A stretch of DNA of 64,000 nt. It comes from a virus. The stretch covers positions 1 to 64,000 of IMG/VR virus record IMGVR_UViG_3300050821_016647; one strand, given 5' to 3'. Each line of letters begins with the position of its first letter. Position 1 is the stretch's first letter. The position numbers were made by a program, and so were the translations under genes. This document shows, piece after piece, positions 11,840-50,224 of this stretch. The notes under the pieces are model-generated. The model saw only the letters and a list, made by a program, of their open reading frames with translations, did no database searches and was not told the DNA's origin.

Positions 11840-11859
11840 CGGGTGACACGGCTCGGGAC

Positions 11860-18921: not shown

Positions 18922-19439
18922 GTTGAAACGGTGCCTGTCGTCGGAGGAGTGGCGAGATAACTCGCTACCGTTTGAGGAGCCGCCTGCGCAGCAGCTGTAG
19001 CCTGGGCTGCAAGCGCTGCGTTCTGCTGCGACTTCCAGATGAGGTATCCGATGGTACCAACGACAGCGACTCCACCGAGCGCAAGCAGAAAATTGCTATC
19101 AGAAATAGGATTCTTCCGTGACCCGATTCGCATGTTCGACGGCGTCGGTCCTCGTCGCTTGCGCGGTTTCTCCTCGCCCAAGACCGCAAACCGGTGACGA
19201 CCTCCTCCCAAGCGTGTACCGCAGGCGTCGCACGGTCGGTACGAGAATTCGCGAATGCCGTTGTCTTCGTCCGCGTCCTCTGCCGAATCGAAGTCCGGGA
19301 CGAGGTGCGGACCGAGCGCATTGACGCCCTCGATGACGTCGCGCTCGCGGTTCGGGTCGTCGATTCCGGACGTGTCACCGTTGACCGCGTAGAACAGGCA
19401 GTCGTCGCAAAGCCAGAGGTCGTCTCGAATGACTTTCAT
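18918..19439 (-). CDS. Cys-motif domain fused to a basic-NP-TM module
   Basis: CDDCLFYAVNGD...EFSYRPCDACG then RKRR...RKNPISDSNFLLALGGVAVVGTIGYLIW. Confidence 0.75.
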   Translation of the reverse strand: MKVIRDDLWLCDDCLFYAVNGDTSGIDDPNRERDVIEGVNALGPHLVPDFDSAEDADEDNGIREFSYRPCDACGTRLGGGRHRFAVLGEEKPRKRRGPTPSNMRIGSRKNPISDSNFLLALGGVAVVGTIGYLIWKSQQNAALAAQATAAAQAAPQTVASYLATPPTTGTVST

Positions 19440-19448
19440 GAGCTACTC

Positions 19449-19871
19449 CTACGGAAAGGACGGGCCTATGGTGGGAAGAACAGGAACGGTGCCGTACGCG
19501 CGAGCAACCTCTCCGATGGGCTGGACGTTGGGGTCCACTCCATAGCTGGCGCCCGATGCGCCGCCGAGCGGCGTCAAAGACCCGCCTGAGCCGAGGACCG
19601 TGGGCGCGTTCACGTTTCCACCCGCAGGAGTTCCTGCACCGACCGTCCCGCCCCCGTCGCCGGCCGCCGCCTGCGCGTCCTGCATCGAGACCCAGAGGAG
19701 ATAGCCGACGAGCCCGAACGCCGCGACGCCGCCCGCGATCAGTAAGAGATCGGTGCCCGTGATCTTGGCGTCGACCTCGATCGGATTTGCACGCTCCCAT
19801 CGACCCCTGGTCTTCGTGTACTCGACCGTGCGCCCGTCCGGGCGAACCGAAATGAAAACGGGTGATCTCAC
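19449..19871 (-). CDS. basic-NP-TM family membrane protein
   Basis: RWERANP...GTDLLLIAGGVAAFGLVGYLLW. Confidence 0.75.
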   Translation of the reverse strand: MRSPVFISVRPDGRTVEYTKTRGRWERANPIEVDAKITGTDLLLIAGGVAAFGLVGYLLWVSMQDAQAAAGDGGGTVGAGTPAGGNVNAPTVLGSGGSLTPLGGASGASYGVDPNVQPIGEVARAYGTVPVLPTIGPSFP

Positions 19872-20338
19872 GCAGAGGGCGCCACCGGGAGCGGTGACCC
19901 TCCAGGAGCGTAAGGCGGCTGGGGCAAAGCCGGCGAGCCAGGGGGAGGCAAGAAGTTCTGCGCCCCGAGCAGTACCTGGCTCGACGAGGCGAGACTGGGC
20001 TGATTGAGCGACGCCGAGGCAGGCTGGAGAGGCAAGCCCGGGTATCCGTTCGCGGCGGCCGTCGACTGCTCTTGAGCGGCCTGTTGCTGATTCCAGATGA
20101 GGTATCCGACGAGACCGACCGCAGCGATGCCCCCTATCGCGAGCAGGATATCGGTACCGGATAGGCCAAAAGGATTTCGCGACGTCTTCTGGAGCGATTG
20201 ACCGGTACGAAGTCGCCAGTCGAGCTCCGCCGGACCAATGCCTTCACTTTGCAGTCGCGCAGCGACGGGTACCGGATCACGATAGCCAGCACGCCGCAAC
20301 ATGCCGGCCATTCGAACGCGTTCTTGCTGCCGATTCAC
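19868..20338 (-). CDS. basic-NP-TM family membrane protein
   Basis: GTGA-coupled start; KTSRNPFGLSGTDILLAIGGIAAVGLVGYLIW. Confidence 0.75.
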   Translation of the reverse strand: MNRQQERVRMAGMLRRAGYRDPVPVAARLQSEGIGPAELDWRLRTGQSLQKTSRNPFGLSGTDILLAIGGIAAVGLVGYLIWNQQQAAQEQSTAAANGYPGLPLQPASASLNQPSLASSSQVLLGAQNFLPPPGSPALPQPPYAPGGSPLPVAPSA

Positions 20339-20577
20339 AGTATCGACCCGATCGCGGTGAGTGCCGCGGTATTCTGGAGCGTGTCGGAAGTGCTCTCTCC
20401 TGACGGATTGAGTGCTTGGTAGATCATCGTCACACCAAGTCCGACGAGCATGACGCTCGCGACGCCGCCGACGACGAGCTCGGTTGTCGAGGGACCGAGG
20501 GGGTTCTTTCCATACGGCATTCTCTTGGGACCGCACGGTGTACAGAGAACAATCGTCTTTGGACGACGTCGTTTCAT
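20335..20577 (-). CDS. basic-NP-TM family membrane protein
   Basis: MKRRRPK...YGKNPLGPSTTELVVGGVASVMLVGLGVTMIY. Confidence 0.75.
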   Translation of the reverse strand: MKRRRPKTIVLCTPCGPKRMPYGKNPLGPSTTELVVGGVASVMLVGLGVTMIYQALNPSGESTSDTLQNTAALTAIGSIL

Positions 20578-20837
20578 CGACGCCCGCGCCGCTTCGCGCG
20601 CCTCTTCGTCCGACGCTTCACGCGCTTTGCGGGCTTCGCCTTCGACTCGGGCACGTACCGGAACCGCGCGCCCTTCACCGTGAGACTCCGGCCCCCGGTC
20701 TTCTCGAGCCGACCCGCAGCAAACCTTTGCGCGGCTTCCATCTTCCGAAAGTGTTTGATCTTCCGGCCGCCCTTCGTGCAGACGTCGTAGCCGTCCGGCG
20801 CGATGTGAATGACGAGTCCGCTGCCACGCTTTTTCAT
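20574..20837 (-). CDS. small highly basic protein
   Basis: MKKRGSG...KRVKRRTKRRAKRRGRR. Confidence 0.6.
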   Translation of the reverse strand: MKKRGSGLVIHIAPDGYDVCTKGGRKIKHFRKMEAAQRFAAGRLEKTGGRSLTVKGARFRYVPESKAKPAKRVKRRTKRRAKRRGRR

Positions 20838-20851
20838 GAGTCTCTTTCCCT

Positions 20852-21046
20852 TCAGGTGCCCGTACCCGACGGCGCTGGACCCGTCGGAGCGGGCGCCGTT
20901 GCCGCAGCTGCGTTCTCTTGCGACTTCATCCAAAAGGAGAAGCCGAGCGCTCCGACCGCAACGATTCCGACGGCGACACGGAGCCAGTCCTCCGCCTCGC
21001 CCGAGAAGGGATTGCGTTGAAGCGCACGTCTCGAACGACGACGCAT
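20852..21046 (-). CDS. basic-NP-TM family membrane protein
   Basis: MRRRSRRALQRNPFSGE...VAVGIVAVGALGFSFW. Confidence 0.75.
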   Translation of the reverse strand: MRRRSRRALQRNPFSGEAEDWLRVAVGIVAVGALGFSFWMKSQENAAAATAPAPTGPAPSGTGT

Positions 21047-21060
21047 GACCTTCTCCCGAA

Positions 21061-21339
21061 TCAGCCCGTTGCCGAGTAGGGAACAGCCGGCGGGAGCGGA
21101 TTGCCCGACGCGTCGACGCCTGCGGCCGTCGCGCTGCCGAACGTGCCAGGTGCCGCCACCTGCGCGCCCGTGGGAAGCGCGGCGCTCGAGGACGACCCGT
21201 ACTTTTGGTAGAGCAGATAGCCGCCTAACCCCAGCACGGCGACACCGACGAGCCCACCGACGATGAGCTCCGTGTTACTGAGCGGGTTGGCTCGGTAGTA
21301 GCTCGCGGACCGGATCAGCTTGTGCCTTCGACGCGCCAT
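21061..21339 (-). CDS. basic-NP-TM family membrane protein
   Basis: MARRRHK...YRANPLSNTELIVGGLVGVAVLGLGGYLLY. Confidence 0.75.
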   Translation of the reverse strand: MARRRHKLIRSASYYRANPLSNTELIVGGLVGVAVLGLGGYLLYQKYGSSSSAALPTGAQVAAPGTFGSATAAGVDASGNPLPPAVPYSATG

Positions 21340-21396
21340 GGATGGTCTCTCCTGTAGGTCTTGACCGCGTCCGCGGTCGTGCTTAGCCAGCATACG

Positions 21397-21771
21397 TCAG
21401 TCGAGGGAAATCGTCACCTTCTGACCTACAGCGACCCCATGCCGTTGGCAAAAGCCTCCTCGAACTTCCAAGACGCTCGTCGACGGCCTCTCAACCCCTC
21501 TGGGGGTTTCATCGTAGGGCTGCAAGGTCAGGATCCCTACGACGTTCACGCCGTCGATGAAAACAAGGTCGAGTACGAGACCTGTGCGTCTCATCCAAAA
21601 TAAACGGGCCTTCCGATCCGTGAACCAGAAAATGGCCCCCTCGTCTTCTGCAAGAGACGCTCGATCCATCAAACCGCGCTGTTGCTCCTCCGGAGCCTCG
21701 AGAATCTCCACGCGCACGGTCGGGCCCTGCTGCACACACCCCTTCGTGAAGCGCACGAGCCCCGGCGTCAT
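21397..21771 (-). CDS. DUF192 family protein
   Basis: QQRGLMDR..L..DEGAIF...FWMRRT..LDLVFID...VLEVRGG. Confidence 0.85.
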   Translation of the reverse strand: MTPGLVRFTKGCVQQGPTVRVEILEAPEEQQRGLMDRASLAEDEGAIFWFTDRKARLFWMRRTGLVLDLVFIDGVNVVGILTLQPYDETPRGVERPSTSVLEVRGGFCQRHGVAVGQKVTISLD

Positions 21772-22016
21772 GCGTCCACCGCCACGATGGCGCCCACGCA
21801 CGGCTTTGCATGACACCGCATGCAGTCGAGCTCGCTCCAGATGCCCCCGAGGACGCGGTCGGTGCTGTCGTCGATGCATTCGGCGCAAACGCGCTCGCGC
21901 TTGCCTCGGTCCCGGGCGTCGCGCTCAGCCGCTTTTCGATAGAGCGAGTCGGCTTGAAGCCCGACCTGACGGCCTCGTTCACGCGGCGACGTCGGTAACG
22001 TGGAGGAGGCAGCCAC
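21768..22016 (-). CDS. small Zn-finger protein
   Basis: CAEC...CMRC; start uncertain. Confidence 0.4.
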   Translation of the reverse strand: MAASSTLPTSPRERGRQVGLQADSLYRKAAERDARDRGKRERVCAECIDDSTDRVLGGIWSELDCMRCHAKPCVGAIVAVDA

Positions 22017-22017
22017 G

Positions 22018-22398
22018 TCACCCTGCCTGAAGAAGCCGCTCGACCGTGTACACGTACTTCGCCGCGAGACTATCACCGGGAATGGCGCTGCCTGGGGTTG
22101 CGCCGAGACCTGTTACACCTGTCGAGCTCGAAGACGTACCGCTCGGAATCAGAGCTGGAGGGGACCCGTCCGGATTCGGAGGTACCACAGGAACACCACA
22201 CCACCCTGGTGTGCTCTGCGCCCGCGTCATCAGGTAGACGAGAAAGCCGGCGGCGACCGCAGTGACCCCGATGATGGCAACGAGCGCGACGGGGGAGAGC
22301 TCGAGAGGATTGGCGCGGTCCTGACCCTGTCCGTAGACCTCCAGGACCGGGTTCTTCTTGCTCTTGCCCGAGCCGTAGACCCTCACTTTGTACGCCAC
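22018..22398 (-). CDS. basic-NP-TM family membrane protein (two NP motifs)
   Basis: KSKKNP...DRANPLELSPVALVAIIGVTAVAAGFLVY; also VTGLGATP. Confidence 0.75.
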   Translation of the reverse strand: MAYKVRVYGSGKSKKNPVLEVYGQGQDRANPLELSPVALVAIIGVTAVAAGFLVYLMTRAQSTPGWCGVPVVPPNPDGSPPALIPSGTSSSSTGVTGLGATPGSAIPGDSLAAKYVYTVERLLQAG

Positions 22399-27485: not shown

Positions 27486-28646
27486 TTACGTGCCCTGCAT
27501 GATGACGAAGGGCTGCTCGGCCGCGGTCGCGCCCGTGCGGATGTAGCTCGCGGTGTTCGAGAGCCCGAACGAGGTGGGCAGCGCGTTGGTCGTCGCCTGC
27601 GAGTAGCCGGCGAGCATGAGATTGCTCATGGCACCGACCTGCCCGCTCGAGATGCTCGGCTGCGCAGCGTTGCCGTAGTAGCTGACGGTCGCCGAGTTCT
27701 GCGTCGAAATCCACCACGCGAAGAGGTAGACGCCGGGAGTGACGGTCCACGAGTTGACCGACATCTGCTGGTAGTTGATGCCGGTGTTGCTCGAAAGCGC
27801 CGCACCGCTCGTCCAGGTGATGTTCGTCGAACCGGAGCTCACGAGTGTGATCTTCGTGCCCGCGCTCAGCGTGTAGAGCGCGGCAGAAACCGAGAGTCCG
27901 CCCGAGACGTTGCTCGAGTGATTCGATACGGACGCAAGCCACATGATGTTCGTGACTGTGATCGCGTACGGGAAAATGACGGGTTGGAAGAAGAGCGTGT
28001 TCTGACCACCCGTAAGCGCAGTCACAGGGCCGCCGTTGCTCCAGCTCGAGATCCCGCCGTTCTGAGCGGTCACCGTCGAGCCGTTCAATCCGAAACTGAT
28101 CCCGTTCGAGTTCGAGAAGACGACGTTCGTGAGGTTCTGACTCGTCGTCCCTGCGGAGACGTTGATGGCCGTGAGCGCGTTGACAGACGCGGTGATGGTC
28201 CCGATCCCGGCACCCGTCGATAGACCGAAGCTCACGCCGCTGCCGTTGGCGAACGTGAGGGCCGTCACGTTGTTGCTCGTCGTGCCTGCGGAGACGTTGA
28301 TGCTCCCCTGCGAGCTCGCCACCGTGGCGCTCGCGGTGATGTTCGTTCCGTCGAAACCAAAGCTGATGTTGTTGGCGTTCGAGAAGGTGATCGCGGAGAC
28401 GTTCGAGCTCGTCGTACCGGCGGAGATGTTGACGTTCGTGAGGAGGGTGCCGTTGCCCGTCGCCATTCCGAGCGTCTGGTTGCTCGACAAGCTCCAGACG
28501 AGCGCGAGAGCGCCACCGCTGTTCGAGAACCCGATGGTCACCGTCGACGCGTTCGCGTCTCCGACCTGAAACATCGGTCCCAGGTGGTAGAGCGTGTCCA
28601 GCGAAAGCTGAACGAGGTCTTGGAAGTTTCCGGTCGTAACGGGCAT
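27486..28646 (-). CDS. fibre/spike protein with ISAGTTS...SFG repeats
   Basis: 3 repeats of about 32 aa; N-terminus and C-terminal head paralogous to 29965-31425. Confidence 0.75.
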   Translation of the reverse strand: MPVTTGNFQDLVQLSLDTLYHLGPMFQVGDANASTVTIGFSNSGGALALVWSLSSNQTLGMATGNGTLLTNVNISAGTTSSNVSAITFSNANNISFGFDGTNITASATVASSQGSINVSAGTTSNNVTALTFANGSGVSFGLSTGAGIGTITASVNALTAINVSAGTTSQNLTNVVFSNSNGISFGLNGSTVTAQNGGISSWSNGGPVTALTGGQNTLFFQPVIFPYAITVTNIMWLASVSNHSSNVSGGLSVSAALYTLSAGTKITLVSSGSTNITWTSGAALSSNTGINYQQMSVNSWTVTPGVYLFAWWISTQNSATVSYYGNAAQPSISSGQVGAMSNLMLAGYSQATTNALPTSFGLSNTASYIRTGATAAEQPFVIMQGT

Positions 28647-28698
28647 GGATAACTCCTATCAGATCACGTGAAATTACGCCAGGCTAGGTTGGGTGAGA

Positions 28699-29961
28699 TC
28701 ATGCCGCGGTAAGGTTGGAAAAACCCCCTGTGCCGGCCTGGTAAAATCCACCTGCGATCATCAGCCACGAGGTCGACCCGCTCATGTTCCCCACGGGGTT
28801 CTGAGCGCCCGTCACGTTGGTCTGGTACTCAATAAGCCACGTGAGTGAGCTCGTGATTTGAATGAGCAAGTAGGTGGAATCATTTCCTCCAGGATTCGAT
28901 ACCGCAAGTCCGGGGCTACTCGTGCACGCGATCACGATTTCGTTAGTGGACTTGTTGAGAGTGAAAGAACCGGGCGTCGCCGTGGTCCCTGTTCCTGAAT
29001 TCCCGGACCCGGTGTCGTACACATTGATATCTTGGACCTCAACTGCGTAGACCGCTGACGTACCAAACGTACCGGTGTACGCCGCATGAACGGCCGCAGC
29101 GGTTCCTCCCGCCACGCCAAACGCTACGAACATCTGGCACCCGGCCACACTCGCACCTGCACAAGCGTGATAGGTGTTGTTCTCGGAATCCGTGACGGAC
29201 CACGACATTCCGCTCACGCCCATGCACATGACTACGATTGCGTTGCCAGCCGTAACATTGCTGGTGAAAGTCGCCGTGATGGGAGACCCCGCAGACGTAG
29301 TCTCCTCGACCGCGACCTGCACCGGGACCGGCCACGGGTTCGGGTTGTCTACAGAGGACAGGCCAACTGCCATGATGCCGTAGTCGGAGTTGACCGCTGC
29401 GTTCCAGTGACCCGCGTACGTACCCGCAGTCGGAGCCGCGAGGTCGCCCATCGCGGTCCACGCATCCGTGCTGAGGTTCGAGCGGAGCGTGTACCCGCCA
29501 CCGATGGAGGCGATGTTCTGATCGATGAAGGCCGAGAAAGAGATGATGACGTCGTTGACCTCGGCGGTCGTGAAGTTCGCCGTCGACACCGCGGTGCCCG
29601 TCGACCCGAAACCTACCGCGTACCCATCCACCGGGTGATGCTGGGCGCAGCCACTCCACTCCTCGCAAATCAGGCCAACATCTGCCTCTGCTGCCAGGAG
29701 CGTCACCGTGACGGTCGTCGCCCCCGCATTGCAGTTGGGGACGTGGTAGACCGCGCCGCCCGAGTTCCCCTCCTGCTGGTTGAAGATGACGGGGATCCAC
29801 TTATTCCCGTTGTTGTCCGTGACCGAGACGACCTGCCCCTTCTGATACATCCCAATGCCGAGGATGAGCAGGTTCCCCGCCGCATTCGGCGTGATGGAGA
29901 GGTTGAACGACGAGCCCGCCGCCGGGGCCGTCTGGATGATCTGCTTGAAGGTGATAGCCAC
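28699..29961 (-). CDS. beta-rich Ser/Thr/Ala virion-surface protein with internal duplication
   Basis: Two related halves (AGNLLIL/AGNAIVV; AGATTVTV/GGTAAAV; TANFTTAEVNDVII/PGSFTLNKSTNEIV). Confidence 0.65.
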   Translation of the reverse strand: MAITFKQIIQTAPAAGSSFNLSITPNAAGNLLILGIGMYQKGQVVSVTDNNGNKWIPVIFNQQEGNSGGAVYHVPNCNAGATTVTVTLLAAEADVGLICEEWSGCAQHHPVDGYAVGFGSTGTAVSTANFTTAEVNDVIISFSAFIDQNIASIGGGYTLRSNLSTDAWTAMGDLAAPTAGTYAGHWNAAVNSDYGIMAVGLSSVDNPNPWPVPVQVAVEETTSAGSPITATFTSNVTAGNAIVVMCMGVSGMSWSVTDSENNTYHACAGASVAGCQMFVAFGVAGGTAAAVHAAYTGTFGTSAVYAVEVQDINVYDTGSGNSGTGTTATPGSFTLNKSTNEIVIACTSSPGLAVSNPGGNDSTYLLIQITSSLTWLIEYQTNVTGAQNPVGNMSGSTSWLMIAGGFYQAGTGGFSNLTAA

Positions 29962-29964
29962 GAC

Positions 29965-31425
29965 TCAGGTACCTTGGAGGAGGAACCAAGGCTGCACGAA
30001 TGCTTCACCGGTACGAATGTAACTGCCCGTGGCACTGATAGCGATCGAAGTAGGTAACGCGGCAACCGTGGACACCGAAAAACCTGGCAAGACCTGATTC
30101 GTGAGTTTCCCCGCCGGGTCAACAATGTTTGTCGCCCCGCCCGCGCCGGTTGCGACAATGGGTAGAACAGCATAGGTGACGCTGGCGGTGTTCGCACCCG
30201 ACCACGCCATCGCCATGACGTAAGGACCCGGTGTGATGGACCACGCGATACCGACCGAACGATACTGATTACCAGTAAAGTTGCTGGATGACGCCGACGA
30301 CCACGTAAAAGCAGCCGACGACGAACTGGCTTGGCTAAGCGAGCCCGCAGTACCTCCACTGATAGAGTAGAGACCCACGCTCATCGTAAACGAACCAGAC
30401 GTGCCAGCGCTCGCCGATACGGATGCGAGATACATAAGGTTGGCAGCAGACAGGAAATAAGGAATCACGATGGGTTGCAAATACAGCGTCACGCTGCCCA
30501 TCTGATTAGTGCCGGACGAAGGTAAACCGTTCTGCCAACTCGAGAACCCTCCATACGCTCCCGTGATGGTGGCGTTGTTCATCCCGAAGGAGAATCCATT
30601 CGAGTTCGAGAACGTATACGCCGACCGAAGCAGCGTCGTGGTCCCTGCGCTGACGAGAAGCCCGGCAAAGGCCGTCATCGTCCCAACACCGGCCCCCGTA
30701 CTGAGACCGAAGCTCACGTTGTTGGACGTCGAGAACGTGATCGCGCTCAGGGCGTTACTGGTCCCGCCTCCCGCGCTCACATTGAGGGCGTACGACGCCG
30801 TGACCGTCGACGCGCTGAGCCCGAAAGAGACGTTGTTACTATTGGACAGCGTAAACGCAGACAGCAGGTTGCTCGTAGTACCCGCGGAGATGCCGATGCT
30901 GTCCTGGCTGCTCGCCATCGTAGCCGTAACGACCGAACCACTCAGTCCGAACGAGATTGCGTTCGAATTGGAAAACGTCACCGCGTTGAGATTCTGACTC
31001 GTCGTACCGGCAGAAATGTTGAAGTTGTAGGACGCCGTAATAACCGAGCCGGCGAGACCGAATGTGATGTTATTCGAATTTGAAAGTGTCGCTACGCTCA
31101 CGGATCCGGTGATCGTCGAAGCGTTGAGGCCGAAGCTCACGTTGTTCGAGTTGGAAAAGGTAACGGCGGAAAGGTCACCCTGGGTCGTACCGGCAGAGAT
31201 GTTGATGGCCGTGAGGAGCGTCGCAAGCGTCGTGTTCGTGGGGTAATAGAGGCTCTCGTTCGTCGTGTGCTGGGCGATGAGATTGAGCATCCCACCCGAG
31301 TTGCTAAACCCCTGCGTCAAGGTGGACGCTGCCGAGTTTCCGACGACGAATTCCTCACCCAGGTGGTAGAGCGTGTCGCCGCTCAACTGGACGAGGTCGT
31401 TGAAATTGCCGGTAGTGTCGGTCAT
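29965..31425 (-). CDS. fibre/spike protein with ISAGTTS...SFG repeats
   Basis: About 6 repeats; TTGNFNDLVQLSGDTLYHLG N-terminus; ends QPWFLLQGT. Confidence 0.75.
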   Translation of the reverse strand: MTDTTGNFNDLVQLSGDTLYHLGEEFVVGNSAASTLTQGFSNSGGMLNLIAQHTTNESLYYPTNTTLATLLTAINISAGTTQGDLSAVTFSNSNNVSFGLNASTITGSVSVATLSNSNNITFGLAGSVITASYNFNISAGTTSQNLNAVTFSNSNAISFGLSGSVVTATMASSQDSIGISAGTTSNLLSAFTLSNSNNVSFGLSASTVTASYALNVSAGGGTSNALSAITFSTSNNVSFGLSTGAGVGTMTAFAGLLVSAGTTTLLRSAYTFSNSNGFSFGMNNATITGAYGGFSSWQNGLPSSGTNQMGSVTLYLQPIVIPYFLSAANLMYLASVSASAGTSGSFTMSVGLYSISGGTAGSLSQASSSSAAFTWSSASSSNFTGNQYRSVGIAWSITPGPYVMAMAWSGANTASVTYAVLPIVATGAGGATNIVDPAGKLTNQVLPGFSVSTVAALPTSIAISATGSYIRTGEAFVQPWFLLQGT

Positions 31426-33023
31426 AGGCCCGTCCCAAAGAGAATCGTACCCGGTTGACGAAGCGCGGAGAAGCCCGTTCGCACATAGCCCGTGTCCGTA
31501 AGAGCCACGGAAGCAGGCAGCGCGTTCCCAGTGCTGGCAGAGATTCCGTTGAGCGGCGCGGACGTTTCAACGCCGTCGAAGGAACCCACGAGGTTCATGG
31601 CCGCTCGACCGAAAACGTTGACCGAGACACCGTTCTGTGTCGAGAGATACCACGCAAAAAGGTAGTCACCGGGGGTCATGGAATAGTTGATGCCCACGGT
31701 CCGGTACCTCGTACCGCTGGCGCCTCCGTAGAGCGAGCTCGCCGTCGTGGCGCTACCACTCGTCCACGAAATGGCGCGCGAGCCGGAACTCGCCAAGCTC
31801 GCGGTAGCTGCGTTGAACGTGTAAACGGCATGGCTGATGGTGAGCGCATCCGAGGCCGTCGAAGCTCCCAAGAAGTCGGCGATGAGCACGAGCTGCGTCG
31901 CGACGAGAGCTGCCGCGAGTGAGAGCTTTTGAAACGAGAACCCCGCCTGCTGAATCGGAAAGTTGGTCACGAAATCTGCATCCTGACTGAAGCACGAGAC
32001 CGTGAGAGCAGGCGAGACCGAAGCCGTCACCGTTCCGGCATCGAGCCCGAAAGTGACGCCGCCTCCGTCACTGAAAGTGACGGCCTGAAGGTTATTGCTC
32101 GTCGTGCCGGCAGACAGGTTGAACACATACGAGGCAGTCAGCGTCGAAGCATTGAGACCGAAAGAAATGCGGTTACTGTCCGCGAACGTGAAAGCGCTCG
32201 CGAGATTGCTCGTCGTGCCGGCGGAGAGATTGATGTCTACTCCGGATACGTTCGCCGACGCGGTCACGTTCGTCCCGTCGAAACCGAAACTAATATTATT
32301 TGCGTTCGAGAAGGTGACCGCTGAAACGTTGCTCGAAGTGGTCCCGGCAGAGATGTTGATGTTGGTGAGACTCGTCGCGACCGACGCAGTGATCGTCGAA
32401 TTATTCAGCCCGAACGAAACACCATTTGCATCTGAGAAGGTGAAGGCCGAAGCGAGGTTCGAAGTTGTTCCGGCGGAAATGTTGATATCGACACCGGTCA
32501 CATTCACCGATGCCGTCACCGTCGACCCAGCCATACCGAACGTCACGTTGTTCGAATTCGAGAAGACGACCGTGCCGGAAGAGACGCTATTGCCCATCGC
32601 CGAGATGGCGAGGGCCGATCCAAGACCGCTAACGTCTACGAGAATTTGCCCGTTCGTATTGTAAACTCTGAACCCATTGCCGTCCGTGCTGTACTGAAGC
32701 ACGTAGCCGGGCAGCAGCGTGAATGTGAAGAGAGGAATAGCCGTAGTGCCGTCCGTCTGTTGCACGGACACCGGACACGGAGCTCCACTCGTATTCGCAA
32801 CGGACAAAAACTTGACGTTGCGATCGAAGTTCGCGGGTGGAGGCGGAACAATAACGGTTGTCGTCGCCGTCGTGATAGGCGGCATATCGAGCGCGCCCGG
32901 AATGACTGTCGGAGGGCTCGTACTTGAATTGATGTCAATGAACGATGCGTGAACTGCAATGGATACAACACCGGCTCCGGTGACAAGTAAAATGCTCGAG
33001 GAGGTGTTGGGTAGATTGAGCAT
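31422..33023 (-). CDS. fibre/spike protein with ISAGTTS...SFG repeats
   Basis: 5-6 repeats; MLNLP N-domain; head domain related to the other two fibres. Confidence 0.75.
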   Translation of the reverse strand: MLNLPNTSSSILLVTGAGVVSIAVHASFIDINSSTSPPTVIPGALDMPPITTATTTVIVPPPPANFDRNVKFLSVANTSGAPCPVSVQQTDGTTAIPLFTFTLLPGYVLQYSTDGNGFRVYNTNGQILVDVSGLGSALAISAMGNSVSSGTVVFSNSNNVTFGMAGSTVTASVNVTGVDINISAGTTSNLASAFTFSDANGVSFGLNNSTITASVATSLTNINISAGTTSSNVSAVTFSNANNISFGFDGTNVTASANVSGVDINLSAGTTSNLASAFTFADSNRISFGLNASTLTASYVFNLSAGTTSNNLQAVTFSDGGGVTFGLDAGTVTASVSPALTVSCFSQDADFVTNFPIQQAGFSFQKLSLAAALVATQLVLIADFLGASTASDALTISHAVYTFNAATASLASSGSRAISWTSGSATTASSLYGGASGTRYRTVGINYSMTPGDYLFAWYLSTQNGVSVNVFGRAAMNLVGSFDGVETSAPLNGISASTGNALPASVALTDTGYVRTGFSALRQPGTILFGTGL

Positions 33024-42299: not shown

Positions 42300-43295
42300 A
42301 TGAAAACCGACCCGGAGAGCCGTTGGTTCACCATCTACGTTCACACGTGCGACGCGGACCCGCGAAGCAGCGGCGATCGTCTTGGTAAAGGAAAGCAGTA
42401 CGTCGGGCAGGTGGTTCATTTGCTCGGTGACGCTTCGGACACGCCGGAACTGGCAATGAAAAGGCGATGGCGAGCAAAACGTTATGAACGATCGCTGATC
42501 GGTCATACTGTCCGTCAGTTCGGAACAAAGAATTTTCGTCACGAGATTCTTGATACTGTACTCGGACAGACCGCGGCCAACCTCGCTGAAGCCGAGTGGG
42601 CTGAAAAACTCGATACCTACGAACCACACGGGTACAACAGAAGAAAATGTGGAACGCAGGGTGCACTGACTTTTGAGGAACGCAGTGCGTTTGGCCGCAT
42701 CGCGCGTCGTAAAGGAATGGAAACGCTTGGTCCAGAAGGACGAAGCGCAGCCATGTACAAGGCTAAGGAAACGTTGGGACCCGAAGGACGAAAGGCAATT
42801 AGTCGTAAAGCAATGGAGACACTCGGTCCCGAAGGACGGAGCGCGGCTGCTCAAAAAGCGAAGGAAACGCTGGGACCCGAAGGACGAAAATCGGCCACTC
42901 GCAAGGCGAATGAAACGAAGGGTCCTGAAGGTCGAAGTGCTGCCGTCCGCAAGGCGCTGAAAACAATGGGTCCTAAAGGTCGGCACGCACGTGCACTCAA
43001 ATCGAATATGACATCGGGACCAGATGGTCGAAGCGCCCGTGTGCGCAGAGCCAATGCGACGAGAGGGCCTGAAGGACGAAGAGCCTCTGCTCTCAAAGGA
43101 ATCGAGACTCAAGGTCCCGAAGGACTGAAACAACGCCTCTACAAGGCTTGGGACGTGCGTTGGTTCAAAGCGCTTCGACTCGCTCTTGCACAAAAAGACT
43201 TTGTGAGAGCTATCGGCGTTCTCAAGGCGTGCCTCTACGCCACAATGCGGAGGCTGGCCGAAGATCCTCTCTTTGGCGAACAGATAGTCGAATAG
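42300..43295 (+). CDS. GIY-YIG homing endonuclease with nine 16-aa repeats
   Basis: TIYVHT...QYVGQ...KRRW...HEIL...AEAEW...GYN; repeats ETLGPEGRSAAxxKAx; antisense to the capsid operon, lower GC. Confidence 0.85.
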   Translation: MKTDPESRWFTIYVHTCDADPRSSGDRLGKGKQYVGQVVHLLGDASDTPELAMKRRWRAKRYERSLIGHTVRQFGTKNFRHEILDTVLGQTAANLAEAEWAEKLDTYEPHGYNRRKCGTQGALTFEERSAFGRIARRKGMETLGPEGRSAAMYKAKETLGPEGRKAISRKAMETLGPEGRSAAAQKAKETLGPEGRKSATRKANETKGPEGRSAAVRKALKTMGPKGRHARALKSNMTSGPDGRSARVRRANATRGPEGRRASALKGIETQGPEGLKQRLYKAWDVRWFKALRLALAQKDFVRAIGVLKACLYATMRRLAEDPLFGEQIVE

Positions 43296-44086: not shown

Positions 44087-45328
44087 TCAGCCGCCCGCTG
44101 ACTGCGCGGTCCCGACCACGCCCGCCGGGACGAGGTGGTTCAGGATGTACTGCTTCCAGGGTCCCCAGATCTCGAAGCCCTTGATGAGAATGGCGAGCTG
44201 GAGCGCGCCACCCTTCATGAGCACGCGATCCGTCTCGACGGCCTTCTCGACCACGATCGTGGTCGGCTCTGCCGTGTCCGCGAACGACAGCTCTGCGATC
44301 GTAACCGCCGTGAGGCCGTCCGTCGCCGGGCCGATCGGCATCACGGTGTGCGTGGTGCCGAAGCCATGGTCGTTGTTGGACAGGTATTGCTTCATGAGGT
44401 TCTGGTGGTACTCGTCCTGCGCCTTGAGCACCATCCCGATCGGGATGCCGCGCTCGAGCAGAACCGGCTTGAACAGCTTCCGGAACGGCTGGAGCATGCC
44501 CGTCATCCCCTGCGTGCGGAGGCCGCCGTAGGTGACGTCGAGCAGATCGTACGCGCGGGTCGGGTGGTACACGCCCGTGCTCGTCGCGCCGCCGGTCGTG
44601 ACCGACCCGATGCGCTGCGAGTTGATCGGGAGGAACGTGCCCGTATCACCGATGGGCGCGCCCTGGTACTTCGCGTTCACGCGGTCGACGTACCGCTGGA
44701 ACGCCTGCTGCGAAGAGCCCGCCGCGACGGCCTCGGCGTACGAGCCGAAGTAGCTCACGTCCGCCGCCAGCTCGTTGATCAGCAGGTAACGCTGCTGCAT
44801 GATCCACTGGAACTGGTAGGCGTTCATGAGGTGCCAGAGCGCGTTCTGCGCGCAGACGCCCCACTCGAGCGTGGCCGGGGTCATCGTCTGACCGCCCGAG
44901 AGTCCGAGGCCGGTCAGGTCATCGGTCGCGAACGAGTCGGGCGAGTTCGGGATCGCCCCGGATGCCGGCTGGAAGTTGATGTAGTTGCCGATCTGCGAGC
45001 CCTGCTGGGGCTCGGCAAACCCGTGCACGCCGAAGCCGATGACCAGCATGTCGACTTGGAGGATGCCGTTGATGACGAACGAGCTGTCGACGTCCTGGAC
45101 CCCCGGTACGGCCTTGGGGTTTTGGAGCACGTCGATCTCGTCACCGAACGTCCCGTCGATGAAGCCGTCGGCGACGGGCAGATCGATCGTCCACGTCACG
45201 TACTCGATGACGGGCACCTGCGTAAAACCGCAAGTGAGAACGCTGTTGACGACGTTGTCGGAGGGAGCCGCACCGAGTCCCACCATGCGGCTGGGATTCT
45301 CGAGCTTGTGCATGCTTGAGCTTTTCAT
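44087..45328 (-). CDS. candidate major capsid protein (jelly-roll-like)
   Basis: 413 aa, very strong GC3 bias, beta-rich (KPVLLERGIPIGMVLKAQ, LQLAILIKGFEI), N-terminal ENP + MVGLGAAP, followed by a hairpin; no HK97 features recognised. Confidence 0.55.
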   Translation of the reverse strand: MKSSSMHKLENPSRMVGLGAAPSDNVVNSVLTCGFTQVPVIEYVTWTIDLPVADGFIDGTFGDEIDVLQNPKAVPGVQDVDSSFVINGILQVDMLVIGFGVHGFAEPQQGSQIGNYINFQPASGAIPNSPDSFATDDLTGLGLSGGQTMTPATLEWGVCAQNALWHLMNAYQFQWIMQQRYLLINELAADVSYFGSYAEAVAAGSSQQAFQRYVDRVNAKYQGAPIGDTGTFLPINSQRIGSVTTGGATSTGVYHPTRAYDLLDVTYGGLRTQGMTGMLQPFRKLFKPVLLERGIPIGMVLKAQDEYHQNLMKQYLSNNDHGFGTTHTVMPIGPATDGLTAVTIAELSFADTAEPTTIVVEKAVETDRVLMKGGALQLAILIKGFEIWGPWKQYILNHLVPAGVVGTAQSAGG

Positions 45329-45441: not shown

Positions 45442-47139
45442 TCAGTCCTCCGGGAACGAGGCGTACATCCCGAAGCCCTTGGGGAGAGCTCCGAGACACG
45501 ACTCATCACGAATCGCTGCCATCGCAGCAGCGTGCGTAGCGGCGATGCCGCCAGAGGTGCTCGTGCACGGAGCGCACTGCGGACCCGTGCTGGGTCCACC
45601 TGGCAGAACCGTTCCGGCCGGCGGGTCCTGGACCACGTCGCCGGTATTCGTGAGAATACCGTGCGGGGTCTGGAGCGGATGCGCAGGGTAACCGACAGGA
45701 ATGGTCGGTCCACCGCCCGGTGCATAGATCGCCGGAGGCGTGCTGCCGCCGGGCAATCCAGGAGGAGCGTTCCCTGGGCCGCCAGGCGAGTACGGCGCCT
45801 GGTTCGGCTGGGACGCTGGAATCACCATGGACGTCGGTGCAATCGGCGTGTTCACGGTGAGAGGCGAGGGAGCGTTCTGTCCCACACCGCGTGCCTTGGG
45901 CCCAGGGTCCCTTAGCGCCGGACGGCGACCGACACCGCGGGGGAGACCCGCGAGCGGAGTCGACGTCGTGGGAGCTGCCGCGGTTCCGGCTGCCGGAGTG
46001 GCCGCCGTCACCGCCGCCTGCGCTTCGATCTCGGCGAGGTAGAGCTGCTGTCCGAGCGCCGTCGAACCGATCATGGAAGCCATGACCGACTTGAACAGGT
46101 TGCCGAACAGAGCCGCGCCCGCGCCGAGCATCATGCCCTGAAGGGCCGCGCGGCCCCACGGGGAATCGACGAACGCCGCCGCGATCCCTGGCACCGCAGC
46201 CACGCCGAACTGCGCGGCCATGGACTGCCAGGATGGGAATGCCTGAGTCGCGACGTCGTTCGGAACGACCTGCGTGCCGCCCGGTGGAACGCTGTTCGCT
46301 GGCTGACCTGCCGCAACGGCTGTCGTCGACATGTACCGTCCGACGAAGTCCGCGAGACCGTAGCCGAGGATGCCGGTGATTCCGACGAGCACGAGCTCAC
46401 CACCAGACAGCGGGTTCGAGAGCACATAGCCCTCAGCACCGATCGTGTCGTACGCCTCGCGCTCGCTGTAGCCGGACCGACCGTAGGCCGGCAACCGGTG
46501 CGAACGCGGAGTGCGACGTGCATGTGACCGACGACGGCTCGAGCTGCGGCGCGTCTTGCGGTGCCGACGCGGAGCCGCACGACGAGTGCGACGCGCATGC
46601 GACCGACGGACCGAACGACGACGCCGACGCGGCGCAGAGAGCCCGAGGCGACGCCGACGCCGACGAATGCCCTTCAGGGCCGCCTTGCGGTGCCGACGCG
46701 GTTGCCCGAACCACTCCTTCGCGCGCGCCCTCTTCCGGCGGCGACGCGGAGCTGCGCGACGAACCGCACGACGCCGACGCCGACGGACCGGAGCCGCGTG
46801 GTGCCGACGCGCCGCGAGGCGACGCCGACGCCGACGGATGCCCTTGCGAGCGGCACGACGGTGACGGATCGGTTGTCCCTTCCAATCGGAAGCCTTCGCC
46901 CTGCGACGCCGACGGCGCTTGGGGGCTGCTGCCGCGGGGGCTGCAACGCGACGCCGACGCCGACGACGCGGGGCGGCTGCCGGAGCGGCTGCCCGGCGAC
47001 GACGCCTGCGCGGAGCTGCGGCGGGGGCTGCGGCCCTGCGACGGCGACGGCGCGGCGCTGCGGCGGACGACTTCACGAAGTGGCCCCTCGAGTTTCTTTT
47101 GCGACCGCGGGCTGCGCGCGACTTGCGGCGTGACTTCAT
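45442..47139 (-). CDS. protamine-like Arg-rich core protein fused to an NP motif and multi-TM domain
   Basis: SD GGGAG then MKSRRKS; (AAAP)RRRRRR repeats; LSNPLSGGEL + TM; further hydrophobic helices; frame stays open and basic up to 47502. Confidence 0.8.
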   Translation of the reverse strand: MKSRRKSRAARGRKRNSRGHFVKSSAAAPRRRRRRAAAPAAAPRRRRRRAAAPAAAPRRRRRRRVAAPAAAAPKRRRRRRAKASDWKGQPIRHRRAARKGIRRRRRRLAARRHHAAPVRRRRRRAVRRAAPRRRRKRARAKEWFGQPRRHRKAALKGIRRRRRRLGLSAPRRRRRSVRRSHARRTRRAAPRRHRKTRRSSSRRRSHARRTPRSHRLPAYGRSGYSEREAYDTIGAEGYVLSNPLSGGELVLVGITGILGYGLADFVGRYMSTTAVAAGQPANSVPPGGTQVVPNDVATQAFPSWQSMAAQFGVAAVPGIAAAFVDSPWGRAALQGMMLGAGAALFGNLFKSVMASMIGSTALGQQLYLAEIEAQAAVTAATPAAGTAAAPTTSTPLAGLPRGVGRRPALRDPGPKARGVGQNAPSPLTVNTPIAPTSMVIPASQPNQAPYSPGGPGNAPPGLPGGSTPPAIYAPGGGPTIPVGYPAHPLQTPHGILTNTGDVVQDPPAGTVLPGGPSTGPQCAPCTSTSGGIAATHAAAMAAIRDESCLGALPKGFGMYASFPED

Positions 47140-47543
47140 TGGCAGTGTCTCCCTAGTGGAAAAACCCGGCGCTTTGGCCGACTTCGAAACGGTAACGAAG
47201 TAGCCTGTAGACGTCAAACGTCTCACATGATTGGCAGTCGTCGAACGCGGTTTACGACCACGTGAATAGCGACGGATCACCGAGAATTTGGCTCTCGAAT
47301 GCTTGCGACGTCGCGGCGCACTATTCGACTTGTCGGAGCGAGTTTTCGTGGCTACTCGCTTTGTAATACGCTTGTGTGCAGCGCTCGTAGACCGATTTCG
47401 CGATACACGCTTAGGTTTTGTATTACGAGCGCCGGCTTCGTCGCTTTCACTCCTGAATGCGTTCATTCGAGCCGCATAATCCCCGCCGGATGACTTCGCC
47501 ATCCACAACGAATACGCCCACGCGGGCGGAACGACAACTCGCT

Positions 47544-47981
47544 CTACGGGAACACGTACCCGCGGTCGTCTACGATGCAGCCGTCTCCCAGTGACAACTT
47601 GTAAATGCGACCAGCTTTCCACAGAGTGGGTTGCCGCGATTTGAACGGGTGATGGAAGCCACCACTGGCTCGCTTGCCCTTGCGCACGTAAAGAATCTGC
47701 GCAACTTCTCCGACTTTCTTCCAGCCATCCTTCGGAATCTTCGGCAGCGTCGCGAGCACCGCTTGGTAGTCGGCACCGAAGTAGCGCCGGTGCGATCGAT
47801 TCATCTCGACCGGACGCCGCGTCTTCTTGAAGGGTCCAAAAAAGACATCACACTTCGGCAACACGACCCCTTCCTGGTCGTGGAACGTCCCATAGGATGC
47901 CGGCAAGCGAATGGTCTTACCGTTGGCCATCTCGAAGACCACGCGGTCCGACTCGACACGAATGGACGGCGACTCGCTCAC
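47544..47981 (-). CDS. basic hypothetical virion protein
   Basis: GTGA-coupled; ILYVRKG...GGFHHPF...PTL...IVDDRGYVFP. Confidence 0.65.
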   Translation of the reverse strand: MSESPSIRVESDRVVFEMANGKTIRLPASYGTFHDQEGVVLPKCDVFFGPFKKTRRPVEMNRSHRRYFGADYQAVLATLPKIPKDGWKKVGEVAQILYVRKGKRASGGFHHPFKSRQPTLWKAGRIYKLSLGDGCIVDDRGYVFP

Positions 47982-48379
47982 GACGCCCCCTGCTGAAGCG
48001 AGCTCGAGTACCCGCCGGGGGCCCCGCCTGAAGCAACGTAATTGAGCATGTTGGCCGTGGCCCACGTTTGGTAACCACTAACGGAGGGTGCCGTCCCAGC
48101 CGGCAACGACGCAACGTACATCGCCGGCAGCTGTGCAATCGAAGCGGCAAGCGCCGTCGACTGCGCCGCAGTCGGCTGCATCCCTCCGATGCCTGCGTTG
48201 GTCGCAAGGATCTGATTCAAGATCCCGTTCTGCACGTCCGCGCTCGGGGGCCAGACGCTGTTCTGATACGTGGTGTAAACCATCCACCCGACGCCGCCGA
48301 CGACGACCGCGCCCAGACCCAGCAGAAGCCACTGCTGAGCCTGGGGGGAAAGCGGGTTACGTCGGGAGCGCCGTCTCAT
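47978..48379 (-). CDS. basic-NP-TM family membrane protein
   Basis: MRRRSRRNPLSPQAQQWLLLGLGAVVVGGVGWMVY. Confidence 0.75.
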   Translation of the reverse strand: MRRRSRRNPLSPQAQQWLLLGLGAVVVGGVGWMVYTTYQNSVWPPSADVQNGILNQILATNAGIGGMQPTAAQSTALAASIAQLPAMYVASLPAGTAPSVSGYQTWATANMLNYVASGGAPGGYSSSLQQGAS

Positions 48380-48392
48380 TCGCCGACCGCGA

Positions 48393-48692
48393 TCAGATGG
48401 CCGCGAGATTCGACGCGTAGGGCTGGAAGATGGATGGCAGATTCGCAACGGCGGCCTGACCGGCCGGCGTCTGAAGCCATGCCTGCTCGTTCGCAGTCAC
48501 CGGCGTCGAACCCGCCGGTAGCGTCGCGGCATACGCGGCGTTGAGCTGGGACGCCTCGTAGATCGTGTACACGATCCCGGCCGCGGTAAGCGTCCCGAGG
48601 CCGATGAGCAGCCACTCGATTCCGGTCGGATTCTCTTTGCCGTACGCGCGAGAGCTGCTGAAACGACGGCGTCGATGATGTCTTCTTCGCAT
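48393..48692 (-). CDS. basic-NP-TM family membrane protein
   Basis: MRRRHHRRRR...GKENPTGIEWLLIGLGTLTAAGIVYTIY. Confidence 0.75.
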   Translation of the reverse strand: MRRRHHRRRRFSSSRAYGKENPTGIEWLLIGLGTLTAAGIVYTIYEASQLNAAYAATLPAGSTPVTANEQAWLQTPAGQAAVANLPSIFQPYASNLAAI

Positions 48693-48722: not shown

Positions 48723-49646
48723 TCAGATCCTTCTTGGACCTGGAACTTTGCCGACTCCACGCACCATCTGCTGCGAAAACGCGTAGTCCTTTGCCTCTTT
48801 CACCGGAGTGCCGTCTGGAAAACACGGCAATCCTCTCTCGAGCCCGACAGGCACGTAAGACGCGCTGTCAGCTTGAGGCGCGAAGGCGTGAGCCATCGGA
48901 AAGACGCCAACGCCTGTTGGTTGAGCTGCTGGCTCTGTCTGCACAGGCACTGCGCCCACTCCAATGAAGTCGCCGTGGTCCGGTTCTTTTCCCATGGTCG
49001 TCGGAGCTCCGTTAGGTGTGGAAGACATTGTCCCGCTGATGGGGTCGACCCACCATTCCTTGGTCGCCGGATAGGACTCGTCCACGCCGTATTTCTCTGA
49101 CGACGGATCGACCTTCATCCAATTACCGTTGTCGCCGAGCACGGCGCAAATGACGTGGGTTGCCTGAGAGGTCCCGTACGCCTGACCTACGATCCGTGTC
49201 TCGATGCCAATCGAGAGCATTGCCGATGCGAACGCGATGCAGCGGTCATCACAATCGGCGGCAGGCATGCAGAGCCCATGTTCGTCCAGACAAAGCGTAC
49301 GAGCAGGAGTCGCCATGAGCTCGGTGTTGACCGGGTCCTGGACGTAAACGGTCCTTTTTCGAATCTCGTTGAGGATGGCTTGCGCCTGTCCTTTGACGGT
49401 CTTCGGCTTGCCCGCGGCAATGAGAACTTTCCCGGCGAACGCGCGGAGCCGCGGGTCATTACGGCCGTCGCGAATGTACTTCGACATCTCGTTGAGCGAG
49501 TAATTCGTCCCTTCAACCCCCGGTGGATGTCGGTCCTGAATCACCGGCGTTCCAAGCGCTTTCGCCGCCTCGGTCGCAGACGGAGCGAAGCCTTTGCCGA
49601 AACCAGCAATCGGGCGGGGAAATGCGGGAACGTCGGAATCGCTCAT
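48723..49646 (-). CDS. transglutaminase-like (papain-fold) cysteine enzyme
   Basis: VYVQDP...P.RTL...ADCDDR (Cys), ATHVI (His), WMKVDPS (Asp). Confidence 0.82.
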   Translation of the reverse strand: MSDSDVPAFPRPIAGFGKGFAPSATEAAKALGTPVIQDRHPPGVEGTNYSLNEMSKYIRDGRNDPRLRAFAGKVLIAAGKPKTVKGQAQAILNEIRKRTVYVQDPVNTELMATPARTLCLDEHGLCMPAADCDDRCIAFASAMLSIGIETRIVGQAYGTSQATHVICAVLGDNGNWMKVDPSSEKYGVDESYPATKEWWVDPISGTMSSTPNGAPTTMGKEPDHGDFIGVGAVPVQTEPAAQPTGVGVFPMAHAFAPQADSASYVPVGLERGLPCFPDGTPVKEAKDYAFSQQMVRGVGKVPGPRRI

Positions 49647-49648
49647 GG

Positions 49649-50224
49649 TCACCCCGCCAGTAAAACGTTCGGTGCGACCCAGTAATTGTTGAAGACCTGC
49701 GTCCACCCGGCCCCTGGCGATCCGACCTGGTACACGGCCTTGAGGTGGTGCGGCATCGCCGTCACACCGGTAGGACACCAGATCCAATACTCACCGACCT
49801 GATGCCACTGACCTTGACCGGCTTGCGGCGCCTTCGACGGCATCGCCCCGTGCGTGTACCAGAAGCCGCGCGGATCGAACTTGGGAGGAATCTGCGCGCC
49901 AGCGGCGACGAGCGTCGGCGCAGCTTGAATGTTGGTCTTGTGGCCTTCAACGATCGAAAGAGACGTGTGCTCCGGAGGAGGCGACATCGCAACATCAGGG
50001 CGCATCAGTGCTCCAACACCTTCCGGCTCTTTCGCGGCTCCTTCCGACTCCTTCCCTACTCCCTCCGGTTCCTTCCCTACACCCTCCGGCTCCTTCACCG
50101 TACTCTTCGTCGGTGCCGAGGTATCCGGCCACTTCTTCCTCTCTCCCCCAGGAAGCAGACCCAGACCTCGAATGATCCCCTGAGGGAAGATGTAGTCCTT
50201 GTCGGGATTGCGATCGTCACTCAT
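49649..50224 (-). CDS. virion protein with KEPEGVG repeats and Trp-rich repeats
   Basis: MSDDRNPDKDYIFPQGIIRGLGL; (KEPEGVG)x~4; GQWHQVGEYWIWCP, GWTQVFNNYWVAP. Confidence 0.65.
   Translation of the reverse strand: MSDDRNPDKDYIFPQGIIRGLGLLPGGERKKWPDTSAPTKSTVKEPEGVGKEPEGVGKESEGAAKEPEGVGALMRPDVAMSPPPEHTSLSIVEGHKTNIQAAPTLVAAGAQIPPKFDPRGFWYTHGAMPSKAPQAGQGQWHQVGEYWIWCPTGVTAMPHHLKAVYQVGSPGAGWTQVFNNYWVAPNVLLAG

Follow-up and report, generated by a model that had tools for sequence, protein, structure and literature searches.

On the current view, large double-stranded DNA (dsDNA) phages load their genomes into preformed capsids by an ATP-driven motor, and they are not known to contain protein polycations. 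Genome-condensing core proteins such as pVII, P6.9 and P64 are a hallmark of eukaryotic viruses such as adenoviruses, baculoviruses, ascoviruses and giant viruses. Here, we analysed the first 64,000 nucleotides (hereafter the window) of the IMG/VR virus record IMGVR_UViG_3300050821_016647, in which the minus-strand gene at 45442-47502 encodes a 686-residue protein combining a long Arg-rich arm with a predicted membrane domain. An earlier note on this DNA had read the gene as a protamine- or adenovirus pVII-like protein covalently joined to a membrane domain. Its observation was confirmed by our analysis, and its interpretation was supported in part only.

Judged by architecture and published function only, the best documented functional analogue would be the ascovirus protein P64. 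P64 is a 64 kDa virion protein with an isoelectric point (pI) of 12.2 that condenses genomic DNA through a domain of basic repeats, and was called an atypically large condensing protein by its authors (PMC6163548). P64 and the 686-residue protein both exceed 60 kDa, have a pI of about 12, combine a long domain of basic repeats with a structural domain that is not basic, and belong to large dsDNA viruses. However, P64 comes from an insect virus, carries its basic domain at the C terminus and has not been described as integral to a membrane, whereas the 686-residue protein has three predicted transmembrane (TM) helices and two nested starts and comes from a bacterial virus. Protein pVII and the protamines share the richness in Arg; they neutralise and compact dsDNA, and a capsid of the jelly-roll lineage would be a further point of likeness. 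They are small and soluble and lack a membrane anchor, unlike the protein described here with its predicted helices at residues 367-392, 425-447 and 448-480, and adenoviruses have no internal membrane but do possess a packaging ATPase. On the evidence of profile searches the protein stands outside the protamine and pVII families, which it resembles in composition and possible function only: the Pfam-A hmmscan gave no match for the whole protein (E ≤ 0.01) or for four segments of it (E ≤ 10), and the proposed family relationship did not hold.

Among membrane-containing phages, a virus-specific membrane area of PM2 was proposed to interact with nucleic acid during encapsidation, concurrently with membrane formation, and PM2 P3/P6 and PRD1 P16 are said to link membrane and capsid (PMC6356626). 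PM2 is an internal-membrane phage, as we propose for the present virus, but its genome is only 10 kb. The same review mentions no DNA-condensing or positively charged membrane protein (PMC6356626). In a survey of capsid charge, motor-packaging phages were typically without Arg-rich arms, apart from viruses that make use of them, and small icosahedral viruses carried a disordered Arg-rich arm on a structural protein, with a charge scaling with the genome packaged without a motor (PMC7096446). Those arms comprise 20-60 residues on the capsid protein of ssRNA or ssDNA viruses, in contrast to about 340 residues on a membrane protein of a 127-kb dsDNA virus here.

The 686-residue protein is a new type of conserved viral protein, in which a giant polycationic arm and a membrane domain are united next to the gene of a capsid candidate. 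It contains 121 Arg and 28 Lys against 25 Asp/Glu, which gives a net charge of +124 and a pI of 12 and makes it the extreme charge outlier among the proteins of its module. Residues 340-686, searched against 5.8 billion proteins, retrieved 14 homologues (E 1e-50 to 1e-129), all of them unnamed metagenomic proteins. The GC-rich region at 46.1-47.2 kb contains open reading frames (ORFs) of 100-260 residues in all six frames, and the frame was examined by a codon-aligned comparison with three homologous loci. Counted against locus L001, the differences at codon positions 1/2/3 were 60/42/114 in the Arg domain, 31/23/91 in the TM part and 52/41/92 in the tail. A non-coding GC-rich open frame was rejected, because the third-position bias fits the 45442-47502 frame. 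The ORF is a genuine gene in this frame, and the earlier observation that an Arg-rich domain and a membrane domain belong to one protein is upheld by the homologues together with this bias.

Other searches placed the protein in no known family. PHROG contained no family for it (E ≤ 0.01), a PDB sequence profile search returned a chance match alone (E 0.12), and tblastn of the membrane half against 50,697 GenBank phage records gave no match. Stand-alone relatives of the Arg domain were absent among 8000 scored candidates shorter than 377 residues, in a search limited by low-complexity words. The top entries in a feature-based search of the ESM Atlas, scoring 0.86-0.87, were unnamed viral clusters, which serve as leads only.

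Table 1. Coordinates of the gene, its predicted domains and motifs, and the adjacent capsid candidate (window positions).
Feature	Position	Strand	Remarks
Long ORF, 686 residues	45442-47502	minus	ATG at 47502, stop 45442-45444 (stop included); 14 homologues, alignment
N-terminal extension, residues 1-121, basic, Ser/Thr-rich	47140-47502	minus	Long isoform only
Motif DYAARMNAFR, consensus (D/S)Y-x-x-RM-x-x-FR	47452-47481	minus	A few residues after the first ATG
Internal Shine-Dalgarno sequence GGGAG	47149-47153	minus	9 nt before the internal ATG
Putative internal start, Met122	47137-47139	minus	Short isoform, 565 residues, net +97, begins MKSRRKSR
Arg-rich polycationic domain, residues 122-338	46489-47139	minus	217 residues, 35% Arg; third-position bias
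Four AAAP-R6 repeats, residues 146-203	46894-47067	minus	About 58 residues
W-unit 1, residues 207-232	46807-46884	minus	26 residues; W-K-G-Q-P-I-R-H-R-R-A-A-R-K-G-I-R6-L
W-unit 2, residues 264-289	46636-46713	minus	26 residues; W-F-G-Q-P-R-R-H-R-K-A-A-L-K-G-I-R6-L
Motif Y-x-L-S-N-P-L-S-G-G-E-L	46393-46428	minus	Runs into TM1; LSNPLSGGEL is residues 361-370
Predicted TM1, residues 367-392, Gly-rich	46327-46404	minus	Kyte-Doolittle 1.78; AlphaFold2 (AF2) helix, predicted local distance difference test (pLDDT) 65-73; E369 and D385 invariant
Predicted TM2 (425-447) and TM3 (448-480), Ala/Gly-rich	46063-46230	minus	Kyte-Doolittle 1.3-1.6, moderate; AF2 helices, pLDDT about 70-76
Amphipathic helix G-Q-Q-L-Y-L-A-E-I-E-A-Q, conserved	46000-46059	minus	AF2 helix 482-501; G484, Q485, Q486, E491 and A494 invariant
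G-L-P-R-G-V-G-R, first RGVG site (RGVGR 522-526)	45925-45948	minus	G523 and G525 invariant; G519, L520 and P521 nearly so
R-G-V-G-Q, second RGVG site (538-542)	45877-45891	minus	G539 invariant, G541 nearly so
Variable Pro/Gly-rich linker	45679-45876	minus	Predicted disordered
Conserved C-terminal segment	45445-45678	minus	P-G-I-L-T-N-T-G-D, C-A-P-C, A-I-R-D-E-S-C-L-G, end F-P-E/D
Capsid candidate, 413 residues	44087-45328	minus	pI 4.9; GC content at third codon positions (GC3) 0.90; next downstream gene, 113-nt gap

The features named in the earlier note, that is, the two W-units, LSNPLSGGEL, the hydrophobic helices and the Pro-rich tail with RGVGR and RGVGQ, could all be located at the residue level (Table 1). 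The description of about 200 residues of AAAP-R6 repeats fits the Arg-rich domain as a whole, with its approximately 217 residues, and not the repeats themselves, which span about 58. At the DNA level these are degenerate short-period repeats only, which rules out a recent product of slippage, and Arg in the domain is encoded by 40 CGT, 26 CGC, 18 CGG, five AGG and one AGA codons. Each homologue carries one to three W-units, whose conserved residues are W, H, A and G(W/I), and the alignment revealed another protein-level motif in the basic region, MKSRRKSR-x-A-R-x-R-K-R-x-x-K-G-H-F-V-K. A non-basic spacer of about 20 residues, ending in Y-V-L-S-N-P-L-S-G-G-E-L, separates the Arg domain from the membrane part, and Y359, L361, N363, P364, L365, E369 and L370 are invariant in 15 aligned sequences. 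The TM2/TM3 stretch is the most conserved part of the family. Pro makes up 19% of the tail (residues 541-686), and the C-terminal segment bears three Cys. The AF2 model of residues 340-686 reached a pLDDT of 47 with only the helices moderately confident, and was left out of the fold search.

One gene likely gives rise to two nested products, one of 686 residues (+124) and one of 565 residues (+97), as judged from conserved sequence signals. The earlier suggestion of a longer isoform covering 47140-47502 was corroborated, because this stretch is an in-frame extension with a shared N-terminal motif in 7/7 loci and the internal Met has a conserved Shine-Dalgarno sequence. It is open in frame in the window, L001, L006, L007, L009, L010 and L011, with stops in the other frames; across these seven loci, 105-150 open codons, each time beginning with ATG, precede the Met of MKSRRKSR. 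The motif (D/S)Y-x-x-RM-x-x-FR occurs in the same seven loci and also in P0009, P0013 and P0014. The extension itself shows no third-position bias (58/47/65) and evolves fast, which indicates that it is weakly constrained in sequence beyond the N-terminal motif, while its basic composition is kept. A GGAG-type Shine-Dalgarno sequence stands before the internal Met in all seven loci, with a 9-nt spacer in six of them and about 5 nt in L010, and none was found at the ATG of the long form. Met122 and the motif that follows it are conserved, and gene callers picked this start in 7/14 homologues. Upstream of the long-form ATG, the frame continues without a stop to a GTG at 47622, in a stretch that is unconserved and overlaps the upstream gene (stop at 47544). 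A terminator-like hairpin with a T-run lies at 47166-47181 on the minus strand, within the coding sequence of the extension, with the internal Shine-Dalgarno sequence about 12 nt further downstream; the number of terminator-like sites of the hairpin region was not above the shuffled expectation. Likewise, a promoter and terminator scan around the gene gave a count not above that expectation.

The gene lies immediately upstream of that of the capsid candidate, as the earlier note had stated, and the order is the same in every related locus examined: in the window, L001, L006, L007, L012, L014, L015, L016 and L017. The pairing holds even in L012, L014, L015, L016 and L017, where the capsid homologues share only 24-42% identity, and it extends to relatives at just 24-31%. 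The distant upstream proteins keep the layout of a basic arm, (E)NPL-x-x-x-EL, TM helices, an R-G-V-G-A-P-type motif (RGVGAP in L012 and L014) and a Pro/Cys-rich tail, with Cys-rich patches at the same C-terminal place. Their arms are Lys-rich in L017, K/R/H-rich in L015 and Arg-rich in L014, and range from about 100 to 340 residues in length. By comparison of these sequences, the charge of the arm is conserved and its sequence is not, as expected for electrostatic binding to a polyanion; a long basic low-complexity domain in which charge is kept over sequence is also what characterises genome-condensing polycations. In L016 (4273-5947) the homologue is split over two frames after TM1 and before TM2; the split is probably an assembly indel, with a real frameshift as the alternative.

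The product of 44087-45328 is probably a jelly-roll capsid protein, an assignment that comes from modelling. AF2 predicted a beta-sandwich with a pLDDT of 87.4 and a predicted template modelling score (pTM) of 0.86. The best structural matches (VIA-align) were weak, with every Z below 8: the major capsid protein (MCP) of STIV (Z 6.3, root-mean-square deviation 3.4, 108 aligned), SPV1 (5.9), PR772 P3 (5.9), SGIV MCP (5.7) and PRD1 P3 (5.5). Lower matches included P23-77 VP16/17, HCIV-1/HHIV-2, FLiP, faustovirus and vaccinia D13, so that most of the matched proteins are capsid proteins of membrane-containing viruses or of the PRD1-adenovirus lineage; the top Foldseek match was papillomavirus L1. 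The family comprises 156 clusters at 50% identity, with members of 410-460 residues beside homologues of the 686-residue protein, and tblastn against the 50,697 GenBank phage records gave no match. A predicted complex between the capsid candidate and the C-terminal 86 residues of the 686-residue protein scored 0.00, which is not evidence either way.

The genome as a whole is a single record of 127,529 bp that carries direct terminal repeats and is rated 100% complete by CheckV; the window covers its first half. Its replication module is phage-like, with an SNF2-type helicase, AAA_24, a PD-(D/E)XK nuclease and a D5-type primase-helicase. It also encodes two tyrosine integrases, ThyX, RadC, a GH25 muramidase and an SLT domain. 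A six-frame search of the whole genome at E ≤ 1 found none of Terminase_6N, Terminase_6C, TerL_ATPase, Terminase_3, Phage_portal, Phage_capsid (HK97), FtsK_SpoIIIE and Pox_A32, and PHROG scans of about 30 large ORFs found no capsid, portal or terminase family. The lack of terminase, portal and HK97 matches, about 20 small membrane proteins and the weak structural matches of the capsid candidate together support a setting that fits a tailless, membrane-containing virus. A membrane-integral polycation of +124 beside a capsid candidate, in a genome where no terminase, portal, FtsK or A32 was detectable, points to a different organisation, and perhaps packaging, of a large prokaryotic viral genome. 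The only P-loop/AAA+ candidates are 87-1691 (Mg-chelatase/ComM-like), 10168-12015 (AAA), 71479-72681 (AAA_24) and 75912-78332 (D5-type). As for the host, the contig search yielded only a 2.6-kb contig binned with an Acidimicrobiales metagenome-assembled genome, which is too weak for an assignment.

We propose that the product of the gene, made as two isoforms, is a membrane protein of the structural module in an uncultured large bacterial virus, and that this membrane-anchored polycation tethers or condenses the viral DNA at the viral membrane. We give this reading a probability of roughly 45%, its DNA binding and virion location being what we infer. In the long form, the N-terminal region of about 340 residues would be a disordered polycation with a net charge of about +125. 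Translocation of such an arm is implausible, and it should remain cytoplasmic with TM1 oriented N-in, as the positive-inside rule would also predict. The arm would bind viral dsDNA electrostatically, neutralise part of its charge and tie it to a virus-specific patch of membrane, with the PM2-type model of a membrane area contacting nucleic acid as the functional parallel. The three-helix domain would anchor and probably oligomerise the protein, and the Pro-rich tail with the RGVG motifs and the Cys-bearing end would project from the other face of the membrane. It would take about 2,000 copies, each of +124, to neutralise all 255,000 phosphate charges of the genome, and a few hundred would suffice for a substantial fraction of them.

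A bolder version, which we consider unlikely, is that the lineage dispenses with a packaging motor altogether: the two-isoform membrane polycation would condense the genome on a membrane patch, and the jelly-roll shell would then close around it. If true, a large dsDNA genome would be encapsidated by condensation in a prokaryotic virus, with core protein and inner-membrane protein united in one polypeptide. In any case, the Arg domain, the two putative isoforms and the RGVG motifs offer an expressible handle on an uncultured lineage with a capsid family of 156 clusters.

Several observations weigh against tethering or condensation of DNA by this protein. In PRD1, a patch of viral membrane pinches off inward from the cytoplasmic membrane and DNA is pumped in later (PMC6356626); pinching of this type would place a cytoplasmic Arg domain between membrane and capsid, and not on the side of the DNA. 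The hydrophobicity of TM2 and TM3 is only moderate and this half of the protein was modelled with low confidence (pLDDT 47, as above), which makes the predicted topology tentative. The conserved W, H, A and G of the W-units suggest a specific fold or partner beyond charge. The membrane domain, with the invariant E369 and D385 in TM1, is better conserved than the arm, which indicates that it is more than an anchor and that the core function could lie in the membrane. Furthermore, the capsid assignment rests on structural scores that peak at Z 6.3, and missing a packaging ATPase with seven Pfam models is not proof of its absence; two AAA+ ATPases (87-1691 and 10168-12015) are encoded.

In a different role, the arm would sit on the capsid-facing side of the membrane, bind the acidic inside of the capsid shell or other acidic structural proteins and register the capsomers on the membrane as an assembly glue or scaffold, much as is said of PM2 P3/P6 and PRD1 P16. 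Such a role agrees with the strict adjacency to the capsid gene, with the acidity (pI 4.2-4.9) of the capsid candidate and most of the large neighbouring structural proteins, and with PRD1-type pinching, which leaves cytoplasmic domains outside the vesicle (PMC6356626). However, a charge of +124 on about 340 disordered residues far exceeds what contact with a protein surface needs, and the arm varies greatly in length (about 100-340 residues) and sequence beside a conserved capsid protein; nor has a specific interface been described. We regard this scaffold role as improbable, well below tethering of DNA.

Arg-rich motifs also bind RNA, and the protein might act outside the virion as a host-directed membrane protein, with its arm sequestering host nucleoid DNA, RNA or ribosomes, or might serve lysis timing or superinfection exclusion with the two isoforms as holin and antiholin. 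The two nested starts do recall regulator pairs made from one gene; also in favour are the invariant acidic residues of TM1 and a membrane domain that is better conserved than the rest of the protein. Nevertheless, the gene lies in an ORFan morphogenesis-like block, paired with the capsid candidate and away from the lysozyme genes at 116-119 kb; no holin or lysis family was matched in Pfam or PHROG, and 686 residues with a long Pro-rich tail are unlike the approximately 70-150 residues of a holin. A host-directed function appears to us just as improbable as the scaffold.

Polyarginine is membrane-active, and still less can be said for an entry or delivery factor, in which the arm would travel with the genome and aid envelope crossing like a cell-penetrating peptide while the membrane domain formed part of a conduit. 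The high conservation of the Gly-rich TM helices, including their acidic residues, is in keeping with it, as is the use of the PRD1 internal membrane as a delivery tube (PMC6356626), but nothing speaks for it specifically and it is compatible with tethering of DNA rather than exclusive of it, so we judge it very doubtful. Finally, an artefact, be it a GC-rich stretch not translated in this frame or a fusion by misassembly, has next to no chance of being correct: all six frames are indeed open across 46.1-47.2 kb, but the third-position bias agrees with this frame, the W-units and MKSRRKSR...KGHFVK are conserved as protein, and at least seven independent contigs carry the same continuous ORF.

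Returning to the protein as a membrane-bound polycation, its tail contains possible processing signals. The two RGVG sites are the strongest short motifs within an otherwise variable tail, and RG[LVIFM]G occurs 14 times in the ORFs of the genome as compared with 6.0 ± 2.3 in shuffles, an approximately twofold excess. RGVG-type motifs may be shared sites of maturation or cross-linking. In adenoviruses, a viral protease matures pVII at short Gly-containing motifs, and the module described here combines conserved RGVG motifs with a Transglut_core gene. The consensus of the adenoviral cysteine protease, (M/I/L)-X-G-G↓X or (M/I/L)-X-G-X↓G, calls for M/I/L at P4, which the P-R-G-V-G and A-R-G-V-G motifs lack, and the Pfam scan turned up no adenain homologue, only the Transglut_core gene. 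The sites follow the membrane domain, so cutting there would remove the tail and leave the Arg arm attached to the membrane.

The Transglut_core protein (Cys-His-Asp, papain-like fold; 48723-49787, E 2.9e-7) is encoded 1.2 kb upstream within the structural block, and the corresponding block of L007 encodes a 980-residue protein with a weak match to the same Pfam family. RG(L/V)G-like motifs are also present in neighbouring structural ORFs. In the capsid candidate, an N-terminal [RK]-x-[LIVFM]-G-[LFM]-G-x-x-P covers residues 14-24 (45256-45289), with G17 and G19 in 55/58 homologues.

Cleavage at NP, by which the earlier note had the Arg domain possibly released, found no supporting evidence, and NP is common to about 20 small membrane proteins of the genome. 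In these, a run of basic residues precedes Asn-Pro and then a Gly/Ala-rich TM helix, which often ends with G-Y-L-I-W/Y-x-S-Q-Q. They are clustered at 18404-22398 of the window and 97091-102925 of the genome; two of their genes (47978-48692) lie just upstream of 45442-47502. The parts come in the same order in the 686-residue protein, with basic residues, then Asn-Pro and, a few residues on, a Gly/Ala-rich TM helix, and a profile of its TM1 region matched one small NP protein marginally (E 0.0013) and the others at E >0.05. In the small proteins, NP comes right after 5-30 basic residues, and there is one TM helix with a G-Y-x-I/L-W/Y-x-x-Q cap, in contrast to the arm of about 340 residues, the non-basic spacer of about 20 residues, the two further helices and the long tail of the 686-residue protein. 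With no basic residue within 12 positions before its NP, the latter fell outside the scan for the basic-NP-TM pattern. The NP motif looks like a membrane-interface or recognition motif.

Elsewhere in the genome, a 555-residue protein at 113065-114732 (L004 9065-10732) matched phrog_1735 (E 7e-164); its homologues, about 45% identical, occur in 540 GenBank phages from many different hosts. It was considered as a hidden terminase and rejected: it had no Pfam or PDB match, its homologues in tailed phages are annotated as hypothetical, with one record of an ATP-binding-cassette protein, and the terminase idea was dropped. The plus-strand gene at 42300-43295, which lies between two minus-strand structural genes, has homing-endonuclease PHROG matches and tandem E-T-L-G-P-E-G-R-K/S-A repeats and has the appearance of a mobile insertion. 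The corresponding place is taken by a minus-strand gene in L007 and by no gene in L001. Four consecutive proteins encoded at 27486-33023, of 386-533 residues with 2-11 Lys/Arg each and a pI of 4.2-4.7, may be fibre or spike-like surface proteins.

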